Below, piece by piece: positions 1 through 61,574 of a stretch of DNA of 64,000 bases. The notes beneath the pieces are model-generated. The model was not told where the DNA came from and searched no databases. It saw nothing but the letters and a program-made list of their open reading frames with translations. A program made the position numbers and the translations under genes. The DNA comes from a phage: sequence record PV730300.1; one strand, given 5' to 3'. Each line of letters opens with the position of its first letter. Position 1 is the first letter of the stretch.

Positions 1-20
1 CACAAGAAGAGAGAAAAATC

Positions 21-305
21 ATGAAAATCACAAAAAGCCTAACTAATTATGCAGCACGTCGCGGATTATGTTTAACCGTTGAAAACTTAGGGAAAGAAGA
101 CTTTTTGTGTTTTTGGGAGCTTGAAAATGATTGCGAGTGGATGTTTTCTTATTCTATCTGCGAAGATCAAAACGGTTGTTTGTTAACCTGTCGCGGTAAT
201 ATCTATTTACCGGAAGAAATTAAAGAAGAGTTACCAGGTACGATCATGACAGAGAGACAGCTTAAGGAAGTGATCAATTTTGTAGGGCAAAACATTAAAA
301 AATAA
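21..305 (+). CDS. hypothetical protein (94 aa)
   Basis: ORF track; ATG preceded by AGAGAAAAA; first gene of rightward array. Confidence 0.45.
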   Translation: MKITKSLTNYAARRGLCLTVENLGKEDFLCFWELENDCEWMFSYSICEDQNGCLLTCRGNIYLPEEIKEELPGTIMTERQLKEVINFVGQNIKK

Positions 306-306
306 T

Positions 307-336
307 TTGACAGTAGGCAAACAACGTAGTAAAGTT
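307..336 (+). promoter_or_regulatory. sigma70-like promoter (TTGACA-N17-TAAAGT)
   Basis: TTGACA at 307-312, TAAAGT at 330-335; followed by leader hairpin GAGCGGCGG...CCACCGCTC at about 346-369. Confidence 0.45.
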
Positions 337-390
337 TATTACATAGAGCGGCGGAATGGTCCACCGCTCACAACAGAAGAGAAACAAATC

Positions 391-561
391 ATGATCCCGA
401 CTATGTTTTATGTATCGCGCAAAGGTCACAATATTTTTTGGTCTGAAGATTTAAATGAAGCTATGACGTTTGCCCGTGATCGTGTTGCTATCGGTGGCGT
501 TAACATCACTGTAACCGATGAAAACGGCATTGAATACTATAACGGCGACGATGAAGAGTAA
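391..561 (+). CDS. hypothetical protein (56 aa)
   Basis: Track ORF 307..561 starts at a TTG that is the promoter -35 box; ATG at 391 follows GAGAAACAAATC. Confidence 0.4.
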   Translation: MIPTMFYVSRKGHNIFWSEDLNEAMTFARDRVAIGGVNITVTDENGIEYYNGDDEE

Positions 562-608
562 TTAATAAGGCGGGGGAGTATTCCCCGCCGTCAATAAAGA
601 GGTAAATC

Positions 609-878
609 ATGAAAATATCATTAGACGTTGCAATCAAGGCCATCGAATCCGGTTACATCCTGGTAAAAGATGATAAGGCTAAAATTGTGCACCACGTTAA
701 CAAGGAAACAGGCGAAAGCATGATCACATATAAAGCCGCCTATCTTCTCCAATCAGTAGCAGATCCGCGCGTACAGCGCCAGGTGACGGCGGCTATTGCT
801 AAAAAATTATGCGCTTTACAGGGTACAAGCTTTAACGAGATCGCCCCGTGTTTTGTCTGGTCAAGCTTGAAAAAATAG
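609..878 (+). CDS. hypothetical protein (89 aa)
   Basis: ORF track; RBS AAAGAGG upstream of ATG. Confidence 0.5.
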   Translation: MKISLDVAIKAIESGYILVKDDKAKIVHHVNKETGESMITYKAAYLLQSVADPRVQRQVTAAIAKKLCALQGTSFNEIAPCFVWSSLKK

Positions 879-906
879 TTTGACAACAGCCAATAATCTG
901 ATAAAG
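879..906 (+). promoter_or_regulatory. sigma70-like promoter (TTGACA-N16-TAAAGT)
   Basis: Same box architecture as promoter at 307; leader hairpin GGGCG...CGCCC at about 917-940. Confidence 0.45.
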
Positions 907-959
907 TGTACTACATAGGGCGGGGCAATAAGGCAACGCCCATTAATGAGGGTAAAATC

Positions 960-1064
960 ATGTTAGAGAAAATTTTCACGGTTGTAATAGTGGGCCTGGC
1001 GTTATCGGTTGGAGTGGTTGCAACTATGGCTAACATGATCCTATCTTCCCACGGTATCGGTTAA
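960..1064 (+). CDS. small hydrophobic peptide (34 aa, MLEKIFTVVIVGLALSVGVVATMANMILSSHGIG)
   Basis: Own translation; RBS GAGGG 8 nt upstream; below ORF-track size cutoff. Confidence 0.35.
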   Translation: MLEKIFTVVIVGLALSVGVVATMANMILSSHGIG

Positions 1065-1074
1065 GGTGAAACAA

Positions 1075-1290
1075 ATGATCACGAATAAGACAGGTAAAAC
1101 GGAATTTTTACGCGGCTTGCAAGTTGGTAAACCTAAGATCTGGCATTGTACTAAATCCGCGCATAATGAAATGAAAGATTTTACCGCTACTTTACAACGT
1201 GTTAAAATATCTATCACACAGAAAAAAGCCTTGTTAGTAGTAGAAAACGAGATCCCGCAAACCATTATCATTGTTGAGCGTACAGCATGA
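1075..1290 (+). CDS. hypothetical protein
   Basis: Track ORF 1066..1290 (GTG); ATG at 1075 after AAGGTG. Confidence 0.4.
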   Translation: MITNKTGKTEFLRGLQVGKPKIWHCTKSAHNEMKDFTATLQRVKISITQKKALLVVENEIPQTIIIVERTA

Positions 1291-1673
1291 AAACAGAAAA
1301 CATTAACGAAATGATCAACGGTTATATAGAAGCTTTTGTTTTTGCAGAAAGTGCAAGCTATTACAATGGCGACTATATCCCGGATCTGGCGAGGTTTGAT
1401 CTTTCTTCTCAAGCCCTGGACCGTATCGCGGACGATGTAACCGCCTTTATTAATGCTAATCTTACCGCTATCTTTGAGGCAATGAGCAACGGAGCAACAG
1501 CCAACCAGATCGGGAATGATTTACATTTCACCCGCAACGGGCACGGCGTAGGTTTTTGGGATCGCCCTGAAATATATACCCCTAACACGGCGAACCGCCT
1601 AACCAGTGCCGCCGAGGTCATGCCGGACGTGTCGGCTTACATTGGTGAAGATAATTTGATTTATATAGAATAA
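1287..1673 (+). CDS. hypothetical protein (128 aa)
   Basis: ORF track; ATGA overlap with upstream ORF. Confidence 0.5.
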   Translation: MKTENINEMINGYIEAFVFAESASYYNGDYIPDLARFDLSSQALDRIADDVTAFINANLTAIFEAMSNGATANQIGNDLHFTRNGHGVGFWDRPEIYTPNTANRLTSAAEVMPDVSAYIGEDNLIYIE

Positions 1674-1679
1674 AAAGTA

Positions 1680-1708
1680 TTGACACCGATCCCCAATATG
1701 TTACTATT
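1680..1708 (+). promoter_or_regulatory. sigma70-like promoter
   Basis: TTGACA at 1680-1685, TACTAT-like -10; leader hairpin GGCGGGA...TCCCGCC at about 1718-1739. Confidence 0.4.
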
Positions 1709-1762
1709 TACCACGTAGGCGGGAAAATGGTTTCCCGCCAGGTAATCAAAAAGGTAAACATT

Positions 1763-2152
1763 ATGCGCAACCTGGTTTCTGTTTCTAACGTTGAAAAATT
1801 TCAATCCTTGCAGGGTATCGTTAACAACGTAGCGCCTTTTTTAGTCAAAGGCTTGATTGTAAAGATGAAAAATAAACATCATACGGCATGGTCTGCTTAT
1901 TGCTTTGATAATGATGAAAAAGCGGCTGAAATGATGTTAAATATGCTTTTGGATAGTGTAGAATCATCTTTACCGGAAAACATCGCAGAAGAGATCACCT
2001 ATCGTTATAATACGGCGATCACCTTTCAGGAGGTTGCACAATTCAACATGCTGGACGATGACGAACAACAAGATCAGGAAATGTTTTGGGAGTACGCGGA
2101 TCGTCAAGCGGCTTTTGATGAAAAGTTAGCGATGTATTATAACGAATATTAA
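1763..2152 (+). CDS. hypothetical protein (about 129 aa)
   Basis: Track ORF 1727..2152; ATG at 1763 preceded by AAAAAGG. Confidence 0.45.
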   Translation: MRNLVSVSNVEKFQSLQGIVNNVAPFLVKGLIVKMKNKHHTAWSAYCFDNDEKAAEMMLNMLLDSVESSLPENIAEEITYRYNTAITFQEVAQFNMLDDDEQQDQEMFWEYADRQAAFDEKLAMYYNEY

Positions 2153-2170
2153 TACACGGTAAAAGAAAGG

Positions 2171-2194
2171 GGGCGCACAAAGCGCCCTTTTTTG
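2171..2194 (+). terminator. rho-independent terminator (GGGCGC-ACAAA-GCGCCC + T-run)
   Basis: Perfect 6-bp GC stem followed by TTTTTT. Confidence 0.6.
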
Positions 2195-2626
2195 TATTCT
2201 TTTTTCACGATGGAAACAACACGTAAAGAATAGGCGTAAAGGTGGCGTAAAGGTGGCGTAAAACCATCTAAAACCGACTGTAACCGCTTAAACAAGGTGG
2301 CAATGATTAATCACCTTACCAGGATGAAAAAGCCGTTATAAAGCTATCTAGAGCGTTTAAAGCACATGGGAAATAATTTGCTTTTTATCTTGCCTTTTAT
2401 TCTGCTTTTGATTATTATTATGGAACGGGCGGCACCTGGGGACAGGTGAAGATAATCACCGGAAGATCCCGCTATATATCGATAGCTAATACCTATCAAA
2501 CAACAAAACATCAAAGAGATAAACTATCAAATCTTTACAATCCTACATATTGACCGATAAATCACAACAGTTTAATATTGTTTTTAGAGGGTAGAACATA
2601 CCCAAAACGAAAACAGGAAAAAGAAA

Positions 2627-2863
2627 ATGAAAGAAGTCATGATCCTCAAAAAATCACCTATTTTACGTGGTGGCTTTATCGCTTACTCCGATGATCTGTT
2701 AATTGCAACGGTTGCAAAAATACTAAAATCAGAAGAGGATAGTAAAAACGGCGTTTATCGTATCTGTTTCACCCGTGGGAAGTTGCAAGGTAAGATCGCT
2801 TATGCTTTTGATTTACAAGATGTAAACGATAAAATATGCGCTGTTATTGATTATGCGAAATAG
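2627..2863 (+). CDS. hypothetical protein (78 aa)
   Basis: ORF track; isolated ORF inside otherwise non-coding region. Confidence 0.35.
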   Translation: MKEVMILKKSPILRGGFIAYSDDLLIATVAKILKSEEDSKNGVYRICFTRGKLQGKIAYAFDLQDVNDKICAVIDYAK

Positions 2864-2927
2864 TTAATTTTCTTATTGACACCGGATCTACTCAATATAT
2901 GAAGCGTTATAATTGACAACAAAACAA

Positions 2928-2955
2928 GGGGGCGCACAAAGCGCCCTTTCTTTTT
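2928..2955 (+). terminator. rho-independent terminator (second copy of GGGGCGCACAAAGCGCCC hairpin)
   Basis: Near-identical hairpin to 2171-2194 followed by T-rich tract. Confidence 0.5.
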
Positions 2956-4537
2956 GCCCGAAAAATGTTGATAGCTTTCGCCTATGAAAAACCGACACAG
3001 AGCAAAACTGAATAAATCACGGTATCAAGCTAATCAACCATCAAATGAATAACCATACACCCCAGGGCAAAAGGCCGTCAGAGAGCTATTTATAGCGTTT
3101 AAAATCGATCAACAGCCAACAACAAACCATCAAAAACACCCTTTTACCTCCTTTCTAGTGCAATGATAACCATTATCATCTACCCATGATTATCTATGCA
3201 ATATAAGCGCATAGTTATAGTGTTGATAATAGTTCGCAACAACTAACCAACAAACAACATAAAACAATAAGCAAACTAATCATAATCAAAGGAATAATAG
3301 CAAGATGATTGATAACGGCAAACAATTAAACCGTGATGAATAGTAAGCAAAATAACGATAACACGACAAAACAACCAACTAACGAACAATAACAAACGAA
3401 ACCATTAAAATAATAACTATTGCCATAATAGTAACTGAATGAAATCATTACAAAACAAATCATTCCCAGGATCATCATTAGCACGCTATGCCGGACACAT
3501 AGCGAGCTAATAATAAGCCAACTACACCCCAACAATCATAACCATCGGTGATGGTTATTTCTTGTTACTGCGTAGCTTGCAATAATTGCAAGCGTAATGA
3601 CGCTTACACTTATTGCGCTGGCTTATTATTAGCATTATATGTAATTACCAAGATCATAACATTAGCGCAATAACAATAATCATTGTAATGGTTACAATAT
3701 GAAATCATTAGCAAGATGAATAATTGCACGTAGCAACATGAGCGAATAGCGACAGGTTGCATAGTGTGCACATAATAGAATAAAAGTCAATAATTTTGGG
3801 GGCGAAATGTTACCGCCAGGGGCGGGAATGTTGAGCACTAAGAAAAGAGATAAACCTTAATCATGGGGGGCGTAAATATCCGAGGATTGCCAACGGCGAT
3901 CCGGTAGGATGTTGAGCAAGTTCTCTTAAACGTAAATAAAATCAGAAAATTCTTGATTTATTTTAGTTTTTATGTTAATAAACGTTTAAATAATAATCAT
4001 TCTCATATAGATAATAGTCTGCTTGTCATGAGCGGGATCGGTTGACATTGTTCCGTCATATGATGAAGTTGCCAAACCATTGATAAATAAGTGTTTGTGT
4101 GATTTATAATCAAATGGCCCACCTTGTCGCTATGTTGGTATGAGCCTTGCATAAGTCATTGAATACAAATGATAATTATTCTCATTCGCATGATATTTGG
4201 GAATTGTCGCTGCGTGGACCTGACGGCCCGAAAATTCGCGTTAAGCACTTCTTACGTATGCGCCATGATTTTTGCCATATTATATTGATTCTATTAGATA
4301 TTCTTGCCATGATTGCCATGAAACAGGGTGTCCCGAAATAATCTCTCCCCGTAGATATTTTGGGTTACTTTTTATACAAGAGTAGGGTGTCAAAAATAAT
4401 CGGTATATATGGGATAATTGATAGGAATCCCCTATGATAATTCGATTGTAATTCCCTGAGATTGATCGTATGATGTTGGTAGATGTTAGTGATTGATGAT
4501 TGCCATGAAAGATGGCTAACGATGAGAGGAGATTATC

Positions 4538-4942
4538 ATGCAAGAGAGTAAAAATGTTCCGTTGAGCAGTATAGTATTGCTTCGATTCTACAAAGCATGG
4601 ATGGCTGATCACTTCAGTATGGATCGCACGAAGAATGGTCTGTGCAATTGTCTTATCAATTTCCTAGCCTCAACACTGCAACCTGAAAATCCGACAGAGG
4701 ACCAATGGATAACCTACTTGAAGGTGCGTAATAAGATTGTAAGAGAGATGAAATCTCAATTCATTTGTGCAAACCTGTCTTATGTCTTTCCATTTAACAT
4801 GGGATTCAAAGATTACGAAGACGAAACCAGATACAAAAGATGCCATGAAAATCCCCTCCGTGTGCAATGGGTGGAGGACAGAATTCAAGATTGTTTGAAT
4901 AATTATGAGGAGGTGTTATGCGAACAAAACAAGTCTCATTGA
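4538..4942 (+). CDS. hypothetical protein, member of 6-copy paralog family (GLCxCL / PFN / HxNxxRxxWVKD motifs)
   Basis: ORF track; RBS GAGAGGAG; shares motifs with ORFs at 4918, 8176, 11505, 14349, 15654. Confidence 0.55.
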   Translation: MQESKNVPLSSIVLLRFYKAWMADHFSMDRTKNGLCNCLINFLASTLQPENPTEDQWITYLKVRNKIVREMKSQFICANLSYVFPFNMGFKDYEDETRYKRCHENPLRVQWVEDRIQDCLNNYEEVLCEQNKSH

Positions 4943-5283
4943 GTAGTACGATGTTGTTGATGTTTTATAAAAGGTGGTTGGAAGGAGATACCTCCCTTAA
5001 TCTCACAGAGCACGGGTTGTGTTTATGTATTAATCATTTTGTGCGAAGTCATTATGCAAAGGATGTGCACAGTCCCAGATGGTATGATGACATGGTGAAC
5101 AGTTTGTTATATGAAATGCGCAAGCAATTTGAAGAAGCTGGTCTTAGTGCTATTAATCCATTTAACAAAGTATATGCAGATTACTTCCTTGAAGTTGAGA
5201 ACAAAATGTGTCATCTGAACCCGCTTCGCATTCAATGGGTGAAAGATCGTATTGAAGATGCAAATAATGCTTGCATTGAATAA
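4918..5283 (+). CDS. hypothetical protein, paralog family member
   Basis: LCLCI, NPFN, CHLNPLRIQWVKDRI motifs shared with 4538 ORF. Confidence 0.55.
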   Translation: MRTKQVSLSSTMLLMFYKRWLEGDTSLNLTEHGLCLCINHFVRSHYAKDVHSPRWYDDMVNSLLYEMRKQFEEAGLSAINPFNKVYADYFLEVENKMCHLNPLRIQWVKDRIEDANNACIE

Positions 5284-5342
5284 AAATGTCTGTATGATGG
5301 TTTGCATACCGCGCATAACAGATAGCCAATGAGGAGATTGAA

Positions 5343-5552
5343 ATGTCAAATATGAAAACTGTATCCTTGTATTTAGCTAACACTGATCGTGTGCACACCC
5401 TTGCTAACGCAAGTCGTGTACTCGTGCAGTTCCGAAACTTCGCACCGTCCGTTGTGACGGGTAGTGAAACGTGTGTGATCGATTTCATCAATGAATATTT
5501 CTACGGGAATCCTGTTGCTCGTCACTTCGTGGAGAATATGAAAGATGCATAA
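5343..5552 (+). CDS. hypothetical protein
   Basis: ORF track; RBS GAGGAG. Confidence 0.45.
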   Translation: MSNMKTVSLYLANTDRVHTLANASRVLVQFRNFAPSVVTGSETCVIDFINEYFYGNPVARHFVENMKDA

Positions 5553-5775
5553 CATGAAACGCATGAAAATTCGTATTGAGAATGATGGTGGTTATAAAGG
5601 ACTTATCCATGCAAAATTTCCACTTGTGTTGGAAGCTACGGTGGAATACAGTGGGCTTGCTCATGTGCGATTCTCGAAGATGATGGAAGTGCAGGAGTGG
5701 TTTTGGGACGAGATAGATGCACGAGAAGGGGAAGATTATGTTTTCTTTCCTCACGAATATGAAATTGTCTATTAA
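5545..5775 (+). CDS. hypothetical protein; paralog of 8886..9107 (shared EWFxxExxxxEGxDYVFF C-terminus)
   Basis: ORF track; C-terminal similarity to 8886 ORF. Confidence 0.5.
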   Translation: MHNMKRMKIRIENDGGYKGLIHAKFPLVLEATVEYSGLAHVRFSKMMEVQEWFWDEIDAREGEDYVFFPHEYEIVY

Positions 5776-5778
5776 AGG

Positions 5779-6027
5779 TTGTGTGCAATGATCACACCAC
5801 AACAGAATGAAGCAGCAATGGATCTTCTTGATAGTTTGTATTTCGATAATTGGTACTCTGAATGTGAATGGATGAATATGCAAACTCTGAAAGAGAAAAC
5901 AGAAGCGTTGATTACAGTAGATCAATTTCTTGCAGAGACGGAAAGAATGAACTATGATATGGCATCTCGCGCACGACGCGTTTCCATTTTCAATAAAATG
6001 TTAGCATTATGGGGAGGTAGAAAATGA
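5779..6027 (+). CDS. hypothetical protein
   Basis: ORF track. Confidence 0.45.
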   Translation: MCAMITPQQNEAAMDLLDSLYFDNWYSECEWMNMQTLKEKTEALITVDQFLAETERMNYDMASRARRVSIFNKMLALWGGRK

Positions 6028-6485
6028 GACAATTCACTATACTGGCAGCTTATGTGCAATGTGTTCACGATTATGTTAGTGCTCATATAGGTTTGCTGGA
6101 AGTTAATAGTAAAATTGAAGGCAATGTGGGTACTGTCTATGTGCAACATACTTTATCTATCGTGCCGTTTAAAGTGTTCAGTGTTGTAGCTGCCGATTAC
6201 AATCGTGTAGATGTGTGTTTCTTGGATCATAATTTTCGTAACGCACTAGATAATATCGAAGATTATCTTCCCGTGAAACCTTTGTCATTTCCACCGAGTC
6301 GTGCAAATAATGTAGTGACAAACCTTAATGAAAGGAATGTGGCTATGCACAAAAAAGTCCGTCAACTGAAAATGCTGATGGAAATGCAAGAAGAGATTGA
6401 AAAAGAACTGAAAGAAGATTTTGGTATGCTTCCAAAAGACGCTTTGAAATGGTATGATGAACTAGGAAGAGAAAGTTATGAATAA
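6024..6485 (+). CDS. hypothetical protein (153 aa)
   Basis: ORF track; ATGA overlap. Confidence 0.5.
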   Translation: MRQFTILAAYVQCVHDYVSAHIGLLEVNSKIEGNVGTVYVQHTLSIVPFKVFSVVAADYNRVDVCFLDHNFRNALDNIEDYLPVKPLSFPPSRANNVVTNLNERNVAMHKKVRQLKMLMEMQEEIEKELKEDFGMLPKDALKWYDELGRESYE

Positions 6486-6672
6486 AGGAACTACTGTATA
6501 TTTAGTAACAAAGAATACCCCAGGCTGGAGCCAATGCAGCACTGTCCCTTACAAGATCTGTGCAACATTAGAACTAGCACAACGTGCAGAAGCAGAAGTG
6601 GATGCCATGCGATACAGCTACGGTGAAATCATTCCTTTCACTCTTGAACAAGAAGGAGCATACAATGTTTAA
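6478..6672 (+). CDS. hypothetical protein
   Basis: ORF track. Confidence 0.4.
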   Translation: MNKGTTVYLVTKNTPGWSQCSTVPYKICATLELAQRAEAEVDAMRYSYGEIIPFTLEQEGAYNV

Positions 6673-6763
6673 AGAAGGTCATGTCTACCGTTTCCAGGAT
6701 GAAGTTTATAAACGTTTGGTTGTTGCTACCATCGGCGTATCTTTTGTTTAAAAGGGGAATGTT

Positions 6764-7201
6764 ATGTTTAAAGTTAATGCTGTTTACTGTTTCAAAACTA
6801 AAGCTGCCCGTGAAGCTTTCTCTATGATCTCTGATGAAAATTTCAAAATGGCAGCTTTGATTGAAGGGTCTTGTTTTCGCGTCGAAGATGTTAGTGAATC
6901 AGGCTCTGTTTGCTCATTGACTTTATTGGACAGCGGGGATATTATTGAAGCTGGACAGTATCCGTTCAGGAGTTGGGAGATATTGTTAGCTCGCGGAGAG
7001 CGTAACTTTTTTATGTGCGTGTCTGCGGGTGAAGTTGTGAAAGAAACTAAGGATGTTTCTGTTTACAATTCTGAATTTATAAGTTATAGTGAGTATCAAC
7101 ATCTGGAAGGCATTGTTGGTCACTTGTTATCTCTGATTGACGTTGAATGTGACCTGCCTGAATCATTGAAAGAAGAGTTGAAAGCATTAGATCTGTTATA
7201 A
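6764..7201 (+). CDS. hypothetical protein; C-terminus LIDVECDLPESLKEELKALDLL shared with 7528 ORF
   Basis: ORF track; RBS AAGGGGAA. Confidence 0.5.
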   Translation: MFKVNAVYCFKTKAAREAFSMISDENFKMAALIEGSCFRVEDVSESGSVCSLTLLDSGDIIEAGQYPFRSWEILLARGERNFFMCVSAGEVVKETKDVSVYNSEFISYSEYQHLEGIVGHLLSLIDVECDLPESLKEELKALDLL

Positions 7202-7228
7202 TGTTTCGCACAACGAAAGGAGAATAAG

Positions 7229-7528
7229 ATGAATCTGACCGAACAGTTACGCCGTATTGCAAAAGAAGCTTCCTTCAACTTCCCTGTTGAAGAAGTGATC
7301 GAGACTTGTTTTGCTGAAGCACGAGCGGGAAACTCTTCAAGAAATTTCACGCCATCCGATTTTGGTCTGGATAACTCCCCTACTCACCCAGGGGAAATCT
7401 ACAATCAGGTGAAATGGATGGATGAAGCAGTAGCAATTCTTCGTGAGCGTGGGCTTGTTGTTTATAAAGAAATGGACCTAAACGGAGCATACGAGTGGAT
7501 CACTATTGATTGGTCCGAGGTGAAATAA
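7229..7528 (+). CDS. hypothetical protein
   Basis: ORF track; RBS AAAGGAG. Confidence 0.5.
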   Translation: MNLTEQLRRIAKEASFNFPVEEVIETCFAEARAGNSSRNFTPSDFGLDNSPTHPGEIYNQVKWMDEAVAILRERGLVVYKEMDLNGAYEWITIDWSEVK

Positions 7529-7740
7529 TGGTTCTTGAACGTTATGACATTGAAGAAACGAGCAAAAACCCTTTTGCATCTTATCGTTGCATCGTAGAGG
7601 TTGACGAAGGGGATTATGTGTTGTATGATGATTACCAGAAGTTAGCCGAAGCCACCTCTTGGTTGGTTTCGATGCTGGATGTGGAGTGTGATCTTCCGCC
7701 TTCACTGAAAGAAGCACTTGAAGAGCTTGAAATTTTATAA
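7528..7740 (+). CDS. hypothetical protein; paralog of 6764 ORF C-terminus
   Basis: Track ORF 7510..7740 (GTG); ATG at 7528 after GAGGTG. Confidence 0.45.
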   Translation: MVLERYDIEETSKNPFASYRCIVEVDEGDYVLYDDYQKLAEATSWLVSMLDVECDLPPSLKEALEELEIL

Positions 7741-13210: not shown

Positions 13211-13239
13211 TTGACAAGTGTTTATTCGTTTTGTAAAGT
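13211..13239 (+). promoter_or_regulatory. sigma70-like promoter (TTGACA-N17-TAAAGT)
   Basis: Same -10 hexamer as promoters at 307 and 879; upstream of recombinase gene. Confidence 0.45.
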
Positions 13240-55730: not shown

Positions 55731-55759
55731 TTGACAAACGTATCCTTCATATGTTAGGA
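55731..55759 (+). promoter_or_regulatory. promoter (ACTATTGACAA box) upstream of tRNA cluster
   Basis: TTGACA-N17-TTAGGA; box ACTATTGACAA repeated at 56318 and 57288. Confidence 0.45.
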
Positions 55760-55969: not shown

Positions 55970-56044
55970 GGCCCTGTAGCTCAATGGGAGAGCTGTCGGC
56001 TCATAACCGATAGGTAGCTGGATCGAAACCAGCCAGGGCCACCA
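55970..56044 (+). tRNA. tRNA-Met (anticodon CAT; could be lysidine-modified Ile2)
   Basis: Manual cloverleaf: 7-bp acceptor GGCCCTG/CAGGGCC, loop CTCATAA, encoded CCA. Confidence 0.65.
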
Positions 56045-56046
56045 AC

Positions 56047-56121
56047 GTCTTTATGGTGTAATGGATAGCACAGGAGTCTTCTAAACTCTTAGTCAAGGTT
56101 CGATTCCTTGTAAAGACACCA
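56047..56121 (+). tRNA. tRNA-Arg (anticodon TCT)
   Basis: Manual fold: loop CTTCTAA, T-arm CAAGG-TTCGATT-CCTTG, CCA end. Confidence 0.65.
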
Positions 56122-56317
56122 GAACATTTTAACATGAATTAGCTCAAGTGATTTGAACCCACTACTGATCATGGTGGCAGAGAATGAGGCAAGTATGTCA
56201 GACATTATAAACAAAGGCCACGGTTATATTAGAAGACATAAATGCTCGAAGAGCACCGTTCGTTGAGAACGGGGGTTGGTGGAGTCACCATTCATGGTAA
56301 AATGTTTTAAAAAACTA

Positions 56318-56346
56318 TTGACAACTAACATTATTTTATGTTAGAT
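56318..56346 (+). promoter_or_regulatory. promoter (ACTATTGACAA box) internal to tRNA cluster
   Basis: TTGACA-N17-TTAGAT immediately upstream of tRNA-Ser. Confidence 0.45.
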
Positions 56347-56355
56347 TATAAGTAT

Positions 56356-56446
56356 GGAAGGGCAAATCGACGTGGCGACGAAAACGGTCTTGAAAACCGC
56401 CGAGCTTGAAAGAGCCTTGGGAGTTCGACTCTCCCTCCTTCCGCCA
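56356..56446 (+). tRNA. tRNA-Ser (anticodon TGA), type II
   Basis: CGGTCTTGAAAACCG anticodon arm matches E. coli tRNA-Ser(UGA); long variable arm; G73; CCA. Confidence 0.6.
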
Positions 56447-56451
56447 GATTA

Positions 56452-56537
56452 GGTAGATTGGTGAAATGGTAGCCACGACAGTTTGCTAAACTGTAGTCGG
56501 AAACGGCGTGTAGGTTCGAGTCCTACATCTACCGCCA
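56452..56537 (+). tRNA. tRNA-Ser (anticodon GCT), type II
   Basis: Acceptor GGTAGAT/ATCTACC, loop TTGCTAA, long variable arm, G73, CCA. Confidence 0.6.
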
Positions 56538-56667
56538 AGTTCTTTTTAATATAGCTTACTTTAATAGAGTAAACTTTCGGCAGATGGCCCCCACCATCTT
56601 ACCGATAACTCATAGTTAGTGGTGTGAACACTGGCTATTTTAAAAAGAATTTAAATATTAGTATTTA

Positions 56668-56755
56668 GGTGAGTTAATTCCGTAGGGGTAGCGGGGCAGA
56701 CTGTAAATCTGTTATCATTGCGATTCGGGTGGTTCGACTCCATCACTCACCACCA
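56668..56755 (+). tRNA. tRNA-Tyr (anticodon GTA), type II
   Basis: GCAGACTGTAAATCTG anticodon arm as in E. coli tRNA-Tyr; A73; CCA; D-arm atypical. Confidence 0.55.
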
Positions 56756-56761
56756 AATTAA

Positions 56762-56847
56762 GATGAGTTGGCTGAATGGTTTAAGCGGCGGACTGTTAAT
56801 CCGTGTTCGAAAGAACGATATAGGTTCAAATCCTATACTCATCGCCA
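56762..56847 (+). tRNA. type-II tRNA (long variable arm, G73) with GTT anticodon (Asn codons); identity uncertain
   Basis: Perfect 7-bp acceptor, loop CTGTTAA, variable arm GTTC-GAAA-GAAC, T-arm ATAGG-TTCAAAT-CCTAT, CCA. Confidence 0.55.
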
Positions 56848-56852
56848 GAATT

Positions 56853-56932
56853 ATGGACTTGTAGAGTTAAGGTAAACCCCCAGTCGCCAAGAGGCTTCTG
56901 AAATTGCAGGTATCGAATCCTGCCGAGTCCCA
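56853..56932 (+). ncRNA. tRNA-like element, isotype unresolved (possible degenerate tRNA)
   Basis: Acceptor-like GGACTTG/CGAGTCC and T-arm-like GCAGG-TATCGAAT-CCTGC but no canonical anticodon arm found. Confidence 0.25.
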
Positions 56933-56937
56933 GCTTT

Positions 56938-57012
56938 GCTCCTATAGTATAATGGCTATTACAACGGTTTTGTAATCCGTGGATCTCTGTTCGATTCAGA
57001 GTGGGAGCACCA
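56938..57012 (+). tRNA. tRNA-Thr (anticodon TGT)
   Basis: Acceptor GCTCCTA/TGGGAGC, loop TTTGTAA, T-arm CTCTG-TTCGATT-CAGAG, CCA. Confidence 0.6.
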
Positions 57013-57287
57013 ACACAACATTAAGAGCACTGTGATTGATCGTCGTATCCTGTGCACAAGGTCTGTTCGAAAGACAGTGTTCTTAGTATTGTGTTGATCA
57101 CACAAAAAGAGTTACCTGAAACTTGACCGGAGTAGGGTTGGATGGGGCAAAAGAAGAAGCGGCTCTCCCATCGACAGCAACGAAGAATAATATTTGACTT
57201 TGGTTTTGTATTATTTTAAGTTAGCTTACCGAACGTAGGGCTAGTCACCCAATGGGATACTCGTCACTGTCCCACTCAATAAAACTA

Positions 57288-57317
57288 TTGACAACCAATA
57301 GTAAAATGTAGTATAGT
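57288..57317 (+). promoter_or_regulatory. promoter (ACTATTGACAA box) internal to tRNA cluster
   Basis: TTGACA-N18-TATAGT upstream of tRNA-Gly. Confidence 0.45.
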
Positions 57318-57328
57318 AAAGATGTAGG

Positions 57329-57402
57329 GCGTTCTTGGTGTAGCGGTAGCATTCCGTCCTTCCAAGTCGGCGGCACGAGTTCGATCCTCGTAGAACGCTC
57401 CA
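57329..57402 (+). tRNA. tRNA-Gly (anticodon TCC)
   Basis: Loop CTTCCAA as in E. coli tRNA-Gly(UCC); T-arm ACGAG-TTCGATC-CTCGT; CCA. Confidence 0.6.
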
Positions 57403-57499
57403 AATTATTTAATAAAGGGTTGCCAGAAAACTTTCTCTTTTACTCATGGTTTTCTCCTTCTCTCACACCTCTTCTGGTTGCCCTTCATTAAATGATTTA

Positions 57500-57575
57500 T
57501 TGGTTTGTAGTGTAGTCCGGTAGCACACGACACTTTGACTGTCGTAGGTTTGGTTCAAATCCAGACAGACCAGCC
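57500..57575 (+). tRNA. tRNA-Gln (anticodon TTG)
   Basis: Anticodon arm CGACA-CTTTGAC-TGTCG; T-loop TTCAAAT; CCA. Confidence 0.6.
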
Positions 57576-57580
57576 ATATA

Positions 57581-57657
57581 ACGGAATTTAGCTCAGTTTG
57601 GTAGAGCATACGCTTTGGGAGCGTAGGGTCGCAGGTTCGAATCCTGCAATTCCGACC
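57581..57657 (+). tRNA. tRNA-Pro (anticodon TGG)
   Basis: Acceptor CGGAATT/AATTCCG; arm TACGC-TTTGGGA-GCGTA; T-loop TTCGAAT; CCA. Confidence 0.65.
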
Positions 57658-57663
57658 AATTTA

Positions 57664-57737
57664 ATGTTTCGTAGTTCAATGGTAGAACCCACGACTGATA
57701 ATCGTGAGACACAAGTTCGATTCTTGTCGAAACAACC
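57664..57737 (+). tRNA. tRNA-Ile (anticodon GAT)
   Basis: Acceptor TGTTTCG/CGAAACA; arm CACGA-CTGATAA-TCGTG; T-loop TTCGATT; CCA. Confidence 0.65.
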
Positions 57738-57741
57738 AGTT

Positions 57742-57811
57742 TCCCGTTAGACTTACAGGATAAGAGTTCCACAGCTTATTGTGATGCTGGTTCGAATCCA
57801 GCACGGGATAC
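57742..57811 (+). ncRNA. tRNA-like element, isotype unresolved
   Basis: T-arm GCTGG-TTCGAAT-CCAGC and acceptor-like TTCCCGT/ACGGGAT but anticodon arm not resolvable by eye; no CCA. Confidence 0.3.
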
Positions 57812-57816
57812 CTAAT

Positions 57817-57895
57817 AGCGGGATAGAGGAGTCTGGTCGTCCTCGCCAGTTTCATATGCTGGAGATCATCGGTTCGAATCCGATTCCCGCCTCCA
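57817..57895 (+). tRNA. tRNA-Met-like (anticodon CAT) with A1-C72 mismatch
   Basis: Arm CCAGT-TTCATAT-GCTGG, T-arm ATCGG-TTCGAAT-CCGAT, CCA; first acceptor pair unpaired. Confidence 0.5.
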
Positions 57896-61476: not shown

Positions 61477-61505
61477 TTGACAAAAGTCACTTTAAAGTGT
61501 ATTAT
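61477..61505 (+). promoter_or_regulatory. sigma70-like promoter (TTGACA-N17-TATTAT) upstream of portal gene
   Basis: Seen directly. Confidence 0.4.
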
Positions 61506-61574
61506 AACTAGATAGGTGAGGTTGTATATAATACAGCCTTGCCTTAACGATTTTATACCTGACTGGAGGAACAA

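Follow-up and report, generated by a model that had tools for sequence, protein, structure and literature searches.

Promoter–hairpin modules of the early array

The left end of the window, by which we mean the whole 64,000-nucleotide (nt) stretch of phage DNA from sequence record PV730300.1, carries a series of modules in which a TTGACA promoter is followed by a GC-rich leader hairpin, a Shine–Dalgarno sequence (SD) and the ATG of an open reading frame (ORF); such modules, nearly identical to one another, precede nearly all of the small early genes. Positions 1–3000 were 90–93% identical to Stephanstirmvirinae Escherichia phages (alia, VEcB, ASO2A and phi92 relatives), and by this similarity we assign the window to a Stephanstirmvirinae coliphage of the phi92/phAPEC8 type. 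The counterpart stretch in alia is the final part of an array of about 10 kb (78.2–87.7 kb of the record) that consists of small rightward ORFs with gaps of 50–100 bp between them, and the array of phi92 stops about 1 kb short of the right terminal repeat annotated in that phage. Because the homologous stretch closes the array in alia and the phi92 array ends near the terminal repeat, the window opens inside the array and contains only the last 1.8 kb of its ~10 kb. The ORFs flanking the modules fall into PHROGs of unknown function or into none, and a Pfam search of them returned no match.

Three complete modules were located (Table 1). Their promoters agree with those that the initial annotation had placed at 307, 879 and 1680, with a 16–17-nt spacer and TAAAGT or a similar hexamer as the −10, except that the second begins at 880; the GC-rich hairpin described soon after each −10, followed by a ribosome-binding site, was also found in every case. 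The three modules share further features: the first paired base is the 11th nt past the −10, AC(A/G)TAG lies between the −10 and the hairpin, and a purine-rich SD and an ATG come after it. The TAAAGT at 13234, previously listed as a recurrence of the same −10, does belong to a promoter with the TTGACA at 13211, but no hairpin follows it. Absent from the initial annotation was a further module, directly 3′ of whose hairpin the window begins; it was seen in ASO2A, where TTGACA-16-TAATAT-gtatcttgta-GGGCGGCaatgGTGCCGCTC (1443–1523) stands immediately 5′ of the bases aligning to window position 1. A promoter-less hairpin copy at 569–589 had also gone unnoticed. It lies 7 nt past a stop codon (TAA, 559–561) and 19 nt before an ATG at 609, with an SD at 597–602, and in related phages the sequence differs while the pairing is kept.

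Table 1 Positions of the module elements and related features in the window
Feature	Position	Strand	Details
Upstream module, 3′ part	1–23	+	Leader, SD AGAAGAGAGAAA, ATG 21–23; promoter and hairpin just left of the window
Module 1 A-rich tract	296–306	+	UP-element-like; holds the stop TAA (303–305) of the upstream gene; repeat D1
Module 1 promoter	307–335	+	TTGACA 307–312, 17-nt spacer, TAAAGT 330–335
Module 1 predicted start	341–346	+	A341 or A343 in ACATAG, predicted from sigma-70 geometry
Module 1 leader hairpin	346–369	+	GAGCGGCGG..CCACCGCTC, GAGCGG-C-GGA atgg TCC-A-CCGCTC; folding free energy (dG) −14.4, z −4.4
Module 1 SD and start codon	375–393	+	Purine-rich SD AGAAGAGAAA 375–384, ATG 391–393 of a 56-aa ORF; repeats D3, D7
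Promoter-less hairpin copy	569–589	+	GGCGGGGGA gta TTCCCCGCC; 18 bits, dG −15.9
Module 2 promoter	880–907	+	TTGACA 880–885, 16-nt spacer, TG-extended TAAAGT 902–907
Module 2 start region	913–918	+	ACATAG
Module 2 leader hairpin	918–941	+	GGGCG gg GC aataag GC aa CGCCC; dG −13.4, z −3.9
Module 2 SD and start codon	948–952; 960	+	SD GAGGG, then ATG 960
Module 3 promoter	1680–1707	+	TTGACA 1680–1685, 16-nt spacer, TG-extended TACTAT 1702–1707
Module 3 start region	1713–1718	+	ACGTAG
Module 3 leader hairpin	1718–1739	+	GGCGGGAAA atgg TTTCCCGCC; dG −14.6; covariance model 33 bits, E = 2.5e-6
Module 3 SD and start codon	1751–1754; 1763	+	SD AAGG, then ATG 1763
Canonical intrinsic terminator	2165–2193	+	GGGGGCGC acaaa GCGCCC + TTTTTT (GGGGGCGCacaaaGCGCCC then T-run); closes the cassette array
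Second copy of the terminator	2927–2949	+	T-rich tail; repeat D2
Promoter outside the module family	13211–13239	+	TTGACA 13211, 17-nt spacer, TAAAGT 13234–13239; no hairpin

A motif search for the promoter–hairpin unit, which the initial annotation had proposed, was run over the window: the pattern TTGACA-N16-17-TANNNT-N6-12-RGCGG gave three matches against 0.02 expected, and none of 100 shuffles reached three. Hairpins with dG ≤ −9 starting at most 14 nt past the −10 were found at all three early promoters and at three of the 71 promoter-like sites in the remainder of the window (Fisher p = 3e-4). The window hairpins folded with dG of −13.4 to −15.9 kcal/mol and z scores of −3.3 to −4.4, and the SD and AUG were unpaired in three of the four leaders folded. 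A covariance model trained on 12 hairpin copies matched the 64-kb window only at 340–372 (the Module 1 hairpin), 563–592 and 1711–1743, apart from weaker antisense shadows and one chance match with E = 7. An Rfam scan of window positions 1–3200 at E ≤ 5 gave no match at the modules and only weak matches at the terminator around 2070–2217. The possibility that the family is a REP-like host repeat was rejected, as there was no Rfam match and the hairpins are confined to the phage early array.

Two consensus promoters elsewhere, at 61477–61544 (+) and 40188–40125 (−), are followed by a stable hairpin 8–12 nt past the −10 and then by a strong SD. These hairpins have no T tail and their sequences are unrelated to the module family; the layout of promoter, 5′ hairpin and SD recurs beyond the early family.

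The module structure extends to relatives drawn from the GenBank phage collection. The comparison drew on the early arrays of alia, phi92, ukendt, SD2, VivaForever and ASO2A, with rV5_ev158 and Cronobacter phage CR3 as more distant phages; family counts cover these eight arrays together with the early region of the window itself. A hairpin was present at 76 of 136 promoter-like sites, with 11–16 modules per Stephanstirmvirinae array, two in rV5 and four flagged sites in CR3, where one site, inside a gene, is a false positive. The first paired base lay 9–11 nt past the −10 at 64 of the 76 hairpin-bearing sites. This distance was equal with 16- and 17-nt spacers, and the position of the stem is therefore set by the −10 and the start site and not by the −35. 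The interval between the hairpin's 3′ end and the ATG had a median of 20 nt (interquartile range 18–22). The consensus of the 5′ half reads stop codon in an A-tract, TTGACA, N16-17, (TG)nTAnnnT, gtatc and AC(A/G)TAG, and that of the 3′ half GGCGG..loop..CCGCC, an a/c-rich spacer, AGAGA or GAGG and ..ATCATG; the stem-loop is GC-rich with 7–10 bp, and the downstream genes are small ORFans. The stop, TAA or TAG, stands inside the A-rich tract directly 5′ of the −35, and similarity between modules also takes in the final codons of the upstream gene and the context of the start codon (repeats D1, D3, D7 and D10; D1 comprises 278–320 and 851–893). That the conserved TAG preceding the stem serves as a stop codon in frame was rejected, since a check by hand found no constant phase to the upstream ORF; its constant phase to the downstream ATG follows from the fixed spacing.

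Covariance model matches in the relatives were confined to the early arrays. With a 95-nt module as query, matches were obtained in 129 phage records, at up to four places per record, and a scan of IMG/VR for relatives by way of an 89-aa protein yielded just two loci. The structural reading of repeated promoter, leader hairpin and ribosome-binding site modules in the early region thus held and could be carried over to the relatives.

PeSL-like cassettes and early-gene turnover

PeSLs (promoter-early stem-loops) are repeated cassettes of a strong sigma-70-like early promoter, an AT-rich upstream tract and a G/C stem-loop. They border ORFans in hyperplastic regions and bring about indels and the formation of mini-circles, and they occur in the T4-like phages RB49/phi1, T4/PST and KVP40/nt-1 (Arbiol et al. 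2010, PMC2839356; Comeau et al. 2014, PMC4122927). The modules share with them a near-consensus sigma-70 promoter preceded by an upstream stop in an AT-rich tract, an adjacent G/C stem-loop, an SD and a small ORFan, in many similar copies within a plastic early region, with indel and replacement junctions in the elements, including a deletion between tandem copies. All four PeSL features that can be tested in sequence were found (promoter with stop-holding AT-rich tract, stable stem-loop, plastic-region copies among ORFans, and indel junctions), and we read the modules as PeSL-like cassettes for the expression and shuffling of early genes, each with a transcribed leader hairpin in a fixed position.

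The modules differ from PeSLs in several respects. They belong to another lineage, Stephanstirmvirinae and more sparsely Vequintavirinae; their stem motif is GGCGG..CCGCC, preceded by the conserved AC(A/G)TAG; and the stem-loop is fixed 10–11 nt past the −10, within the predicted mRNA of the cassette itself. In phi1, PeSL stem-loops lie most commonly between the −35 and −10 or over the −10 (PMC2839356), so that the transcript of the cassette would lack the full hairpin. For PeSLs, promoter activity, terminator activity and mini-circles have been shown experimentally. Within the literature that could be searched, descriptions of PeSLs come from T4-like phages only, with the term also used in one cyanophage paper, and the phAPEC8, rV5, phi92, Certrevirus and ASO2A papers mention only sigma-70-like promoters and predicted terminators, not the module.

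Palindromes in other positions were observed in the more distant phages. CR3 (4775–7630) has early promoters with a conserved palindrome, CCGGGnnnnnnCCCGG, between the −35 and −10, and rV5_ev158 has three copies of GATGGCC-TTGACT-ccaGGGCCATC around the −35 (2413, 3034 and 6772). We read these as other promoter/stem-loop geometries, like PeSL subclasses.

Comparison with the relatives shows that the modules serve as crossover points for gain, loss and swap of early genes between related phages. Homology between the window and its relatives broke at 384/395, 615, 863–872, 899, 923–950 and 1738–1765, all inside modules. In total, 13 of 16 breakpoints fell within modules, which make up 14% of the region, a statistic that is inflated because viable junctions of gene indels must be intergenic anyway. 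The left part of Module 2, through the −35, matched the module before alia gene 122 (alia_122), and from the spacer onward it matched the next alia module; gene 122 is missing from the window. Module 2 is accordingly a recombinant of two tandem alia modules, formed by a crossover that deleted the gene or, reciprocally, by its insertion, and an IMG/VR relative has the same layout at this locus with a different inserted gene. In phi92, SD2 and ukendt, the genes after Modules 1, 2 and 3 give way to ORFs unrelated to them, and the junctions lie at the hairpin or the ATG.

A 71-aa gene (1075–1290) is precisely absent (window 1073–1282) in phi92 and SD2; the junctions coincide with the boundaries of the gene and involve no module, so that some cassette turnover bypasses the modules. 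PeSL-type cassettes would also organize the ORFan-rich early region of the phi92/phAPEC8 group and, more sparsely, those of rV5 and CR3, and the modules would give a concrete mechanism for the fast replacement of early genes in coliphages that are widely used for therapy.

Structure and proposed role of the leader hairpin

An alignment of 36 hairpins by MAFFT misaligned the 3′ arms, and a covariance-model alignment was used in its place. Standard pairs filled 97.1% of its cells, compared with 90.6% in column shuffles and 47–75% with slid partners, figures that are supportive, not conclusive, as the alignment was fitted to the model. Both sides had changed at five of nine pairs, and the basal pair was GC in 49, GU in 16 and AU in 10 cases; since the rows are paralogues and orthologues of one another, neither the covariation nor the G·U counts represent independent events. 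An independent sign of selection for pairing comes from the site orthologous to Module 1, where one promoter, TTGACActaggcaaacaacgtagTAAAGT, is followed in different phages by three stem tops (CGGAATGGTCCA, GAAATGGTTTC and CAATAGTG), all fully paired on a shared GGGCGG/CCGCTC base. On the sense strand, the distinct plus rows contained 21 G·U against 6 A·C (binomial p = 0.006), and of 39 distinct hairpins, 25 were more stable when folded from the sense strand and 6 when folded from the antisense strand. These results, from related sequences, are suggestive of a structure that acts in the sense transcript. An RNA structure is favored because of the covariation and the excess of G·U over A·C on the sense strand.

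The same inverted repeats might act in DNA, either as the operator of a dimeric repressor that shuts early promoters from just past +1, or as a cruciform or recombination signal. Their centers at about +15, the classical roadblock position, would suit a repressor, and the PeSL authors speculated on a DNA-binding recombination protein. However, GCGG and CCGC are separated by anything from about 8 to 13 nt, some of the elements contain internal mismatches or bulges, the changes are compensatory and the half-sites not conserved, and G·T on the sense strand is tolerated 3.5 times more than A·C. A palindromic DNA operator was rejected, as the half-site spacing varies and the changes are compensatory, and action at the DNA level in any of these forms is the least probable of the explanations weighed here. 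A hairpin without a function of its own, a mere passenger in a repeated module that is spread through homologous recombination and duplication, would account for the high similarity of the modules, flanks included, and for the intra-module recombination demonstrated by comparison. We nevertheless hold this to be improbable, because pairing is kept through sequence turnover, unrelated hairpins occur at the same position after the promoters at 61477 (+) and 40188 (−), and the architecture persists in the distant rV5 and CR3.

Escherichia coli RNA polymerase usually starts 6–8 nt past the −10 hexamer. The nucleotides 6 and 8 past the −10 are the two A's of ACATAG, nucleotide 7 is C, and nucleotide 11, the G of TAG, is the first paired base. 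By sigma-70 geometry the stem would start at about +4 to +6, hence within the transcript. Most likely the hairpin is an RNA structure located 3–5 nt from the 5′ end of the mRNA; it is not a canonical terminator, nor is it a DNA operator.

We propose that the host RNA polymerase initiates transcription at either the first A or the second A in ACATAG and that every early mRNA would begin with 5′-ACAUA or 5′-AUA, the stem directly after it, with 5 or 3 unpaired nt preceding the stem and a pyrimidine at position 2. A stem-loop so close to the 5′ end, together with the pyrimidine as second nucleotide, may hinder attack by RppH and by 5′-end-dependent RNase E. The same hairpin would cap the downstream cistron once read-through transcripts are cut in the AU-rich promoter segment, and would keep the SD region clear of upstream pairing; the outcome would be self-contained, context-independent and shufflable expression units. 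RppH and RNase E require at least two unpaired 5′ nt and prefer at least three, and RppH prefers a purine at position 2 (PMC8833179); a 5′-terminal stem-loop is a known stabilizer according to the references given in PMC3997798. The geometry is compatible with 5′-end protection, though at the edge of the known requirement, and it likewise fits the suggestion of the initial annotation that such hairpins stabilize mRNA or act as regulatory targets.

The modules resemble the ompA and papA leaders in that a stable hairpin lies a few nt from the predicted 5′ end and upstream of an accessible SD. Structures of this kind block RppH and 5′-end-dependent RNase E, with the stem starting within about 0–4 nt of the 5′ end. 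Another 5′-terminal stabilizing stem-loop is the leader hairpin of T7 gene 10. In contrast to these three cases, the 5′ end of the module transcripts is a predicted one, the 3–5 nt predicted to be unpaired reach or exceed the limit for protection, and the hairpins form a multi-copy family with one promoter-less copy. Protection of the 5′ end or insulation is the role that we consider most likely, but our preference for it is tentative. Besides the relatedness of the aligned hairpins and the inflated breakpoint statistic, several points weigh against it. A literature search for transcription start maps of Vequintavirus found none, and +1 is a predicted position only; a start at the first A of ACATAG would leave 5 unpaired nt, enough for RppH and RNase E, and protection could be weak; the promoter-less copy at 569–589 keeps its hairpin away from a primary 5′ end; and about a third to half of the promoter-like sites in the early arrays have no hairpin. 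The fixed arrangement of promoter, ~3–5 nt, hairpin, ~20 nt and AUG provides about 40 natural sequence variants of a compact expression unit, which are candidate 5′ untranslated region stabilizers or insulators.

The original interpretation of PeSLs was that of an attenuator or insulator, in which the stem-loops partly terminate or pause transcription from upstream cassettes and so stop at least 15 tandem strong promoters from summing over downstream genes. A PeSL stem-loop in RB49/phi1 lowered lacZ expression to roughly the same extent as the rrnB T1 terminator (PMC2839356), the whole array is served by only about three canonical terminators, and the promoter-less copy stands between two genes. 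The annotators of ASO2A also called the hairpins rho-independent terminators with WebGeSTer; in record MZ726793 the hairpins at 1002–1028, 1476–1516, 1846–1879 and 2069–2100 carry this label and were placed directly downstream of annotated promoters. The modules resemble intrinsic terminators in having a short, GC-rich, intergenic hairpin. They differ in that 56 of 63 distinct modules have only 0–2 T in the 8 nt past the stem, and in that the hairpins lie downstream, not upstream, of the adjacent promoter; a consensus terminator scan of the window made no call at the module hairpins on the plus strand. A canonical intrinsic terminator was rejected for want of a U tract, and for the same reason the ASO2A labels are probably wrong; database labels of module hairpins as rho-independent terminators would thereby be corrected. 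The phage does have textbook terminators of the usual form nearby, at the array end (Table 1). Moreover, a hairpin at a fixed distance past the start of its own promoter would act equally on its own transcripts, and a pure terminator would need no fixed distance. We therefore regard attenuation as possible but doubtful. An RNase III site was rejected, as stems of 7–10 bp are too short.

Alternatively, the hairpin, with its frequent AAU(A/G)GU top, may be a recognition site at which a phage or host protein co-regulates all early transcripts, by boxB/nut-like antitermination, as a translational operator, or through targeted decay at the early-to-middle switch. The AAU(A/G)GU top and AC(A/G)UAG would then form a common RNA address tag for one trans-acting factor. 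If so, this factor (a phage early or middle protein, a host RNA-binding protein or an RNase) would switch 15–20 early mRNAs together, on, off or to decay, and the tag would be a regulon-wide leader operator, nut/boxB- or RegA-like in function, of a new sequence family. Covarying stems, apical AAT(A/G)G words that recur in most copies, including one in the distant CR3, and the fixed place in every early leader are consistent with recognition. The loop is not universal, however: rV5 has AATGT or AAAAC, Module 2 has a different top, another copy has ACAA, and recent common descent or gene conversion between paralogues can explain what conservation there is. No candidate binding protein was identified, the flanking ORFs being without Pfam match, and no Rfam family was matched. 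Both the recognition site and its specific form as an address tag appear unlikely to us. The nut (boxB) site of lambda and the put site of HK022 are likewise small early-leader hairpins with a variable stem and a loop that tends to be conserved. They differ from the modules, whose loop is not invariant and which occur once per gene, not once per operon, and no boxA-like element or N-like protein was identified for the modules.

Sequence beyond the early array

The two terminators are duplicates (2162–2193 and 2921–2952, 91% identical over 32 nt and 759 bp apart) that bracket one small gene (2627–2863) and a non-coding stretch; the relatives carry homologous terminators. Just past the first terminator is a tandem repeat of GGCGTAAAGGT in about 2.5 copies (2232–2262), with fewer copies in alia. 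The non-coding DNA at about 2930–4200 matches phi92 DNA leading into and inside the annotated right terminal repeat, with 4151–4199 within the repeat. The physical genome end probably lies in this part of the window, with the early array transcribed toward it.

Motifs resembling a Fur box of the 7-1-7 form, TGATAATnATTATCA, with one or two mismatches, were found at 3164–3178, 3991–4005 and 4170–4184, a trio clustered in the ~1.6-kb non-coding region (2950–4537) past the early array. The 15-mer 7-1-7 form had five matches in the whole window against 0.77 expected, and the 19-mer Fur box with at most three mismatches had none. Similar words, 'gataatcattctcat', occur in abundance in the non-coding DNA on either side of the alia early array, and the motifs could be sites of host Fur binding or an unrelated phage repeat. 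Farther to the right, 10 tRNA genes are clustered at 55970–57895 (Met, Arg, Ser, Asn, Thr, Gly, Gln, Pro, Ile and Met), and consensus TTGACA promoters occur at this cluster at 55731, 56318 and 57288.

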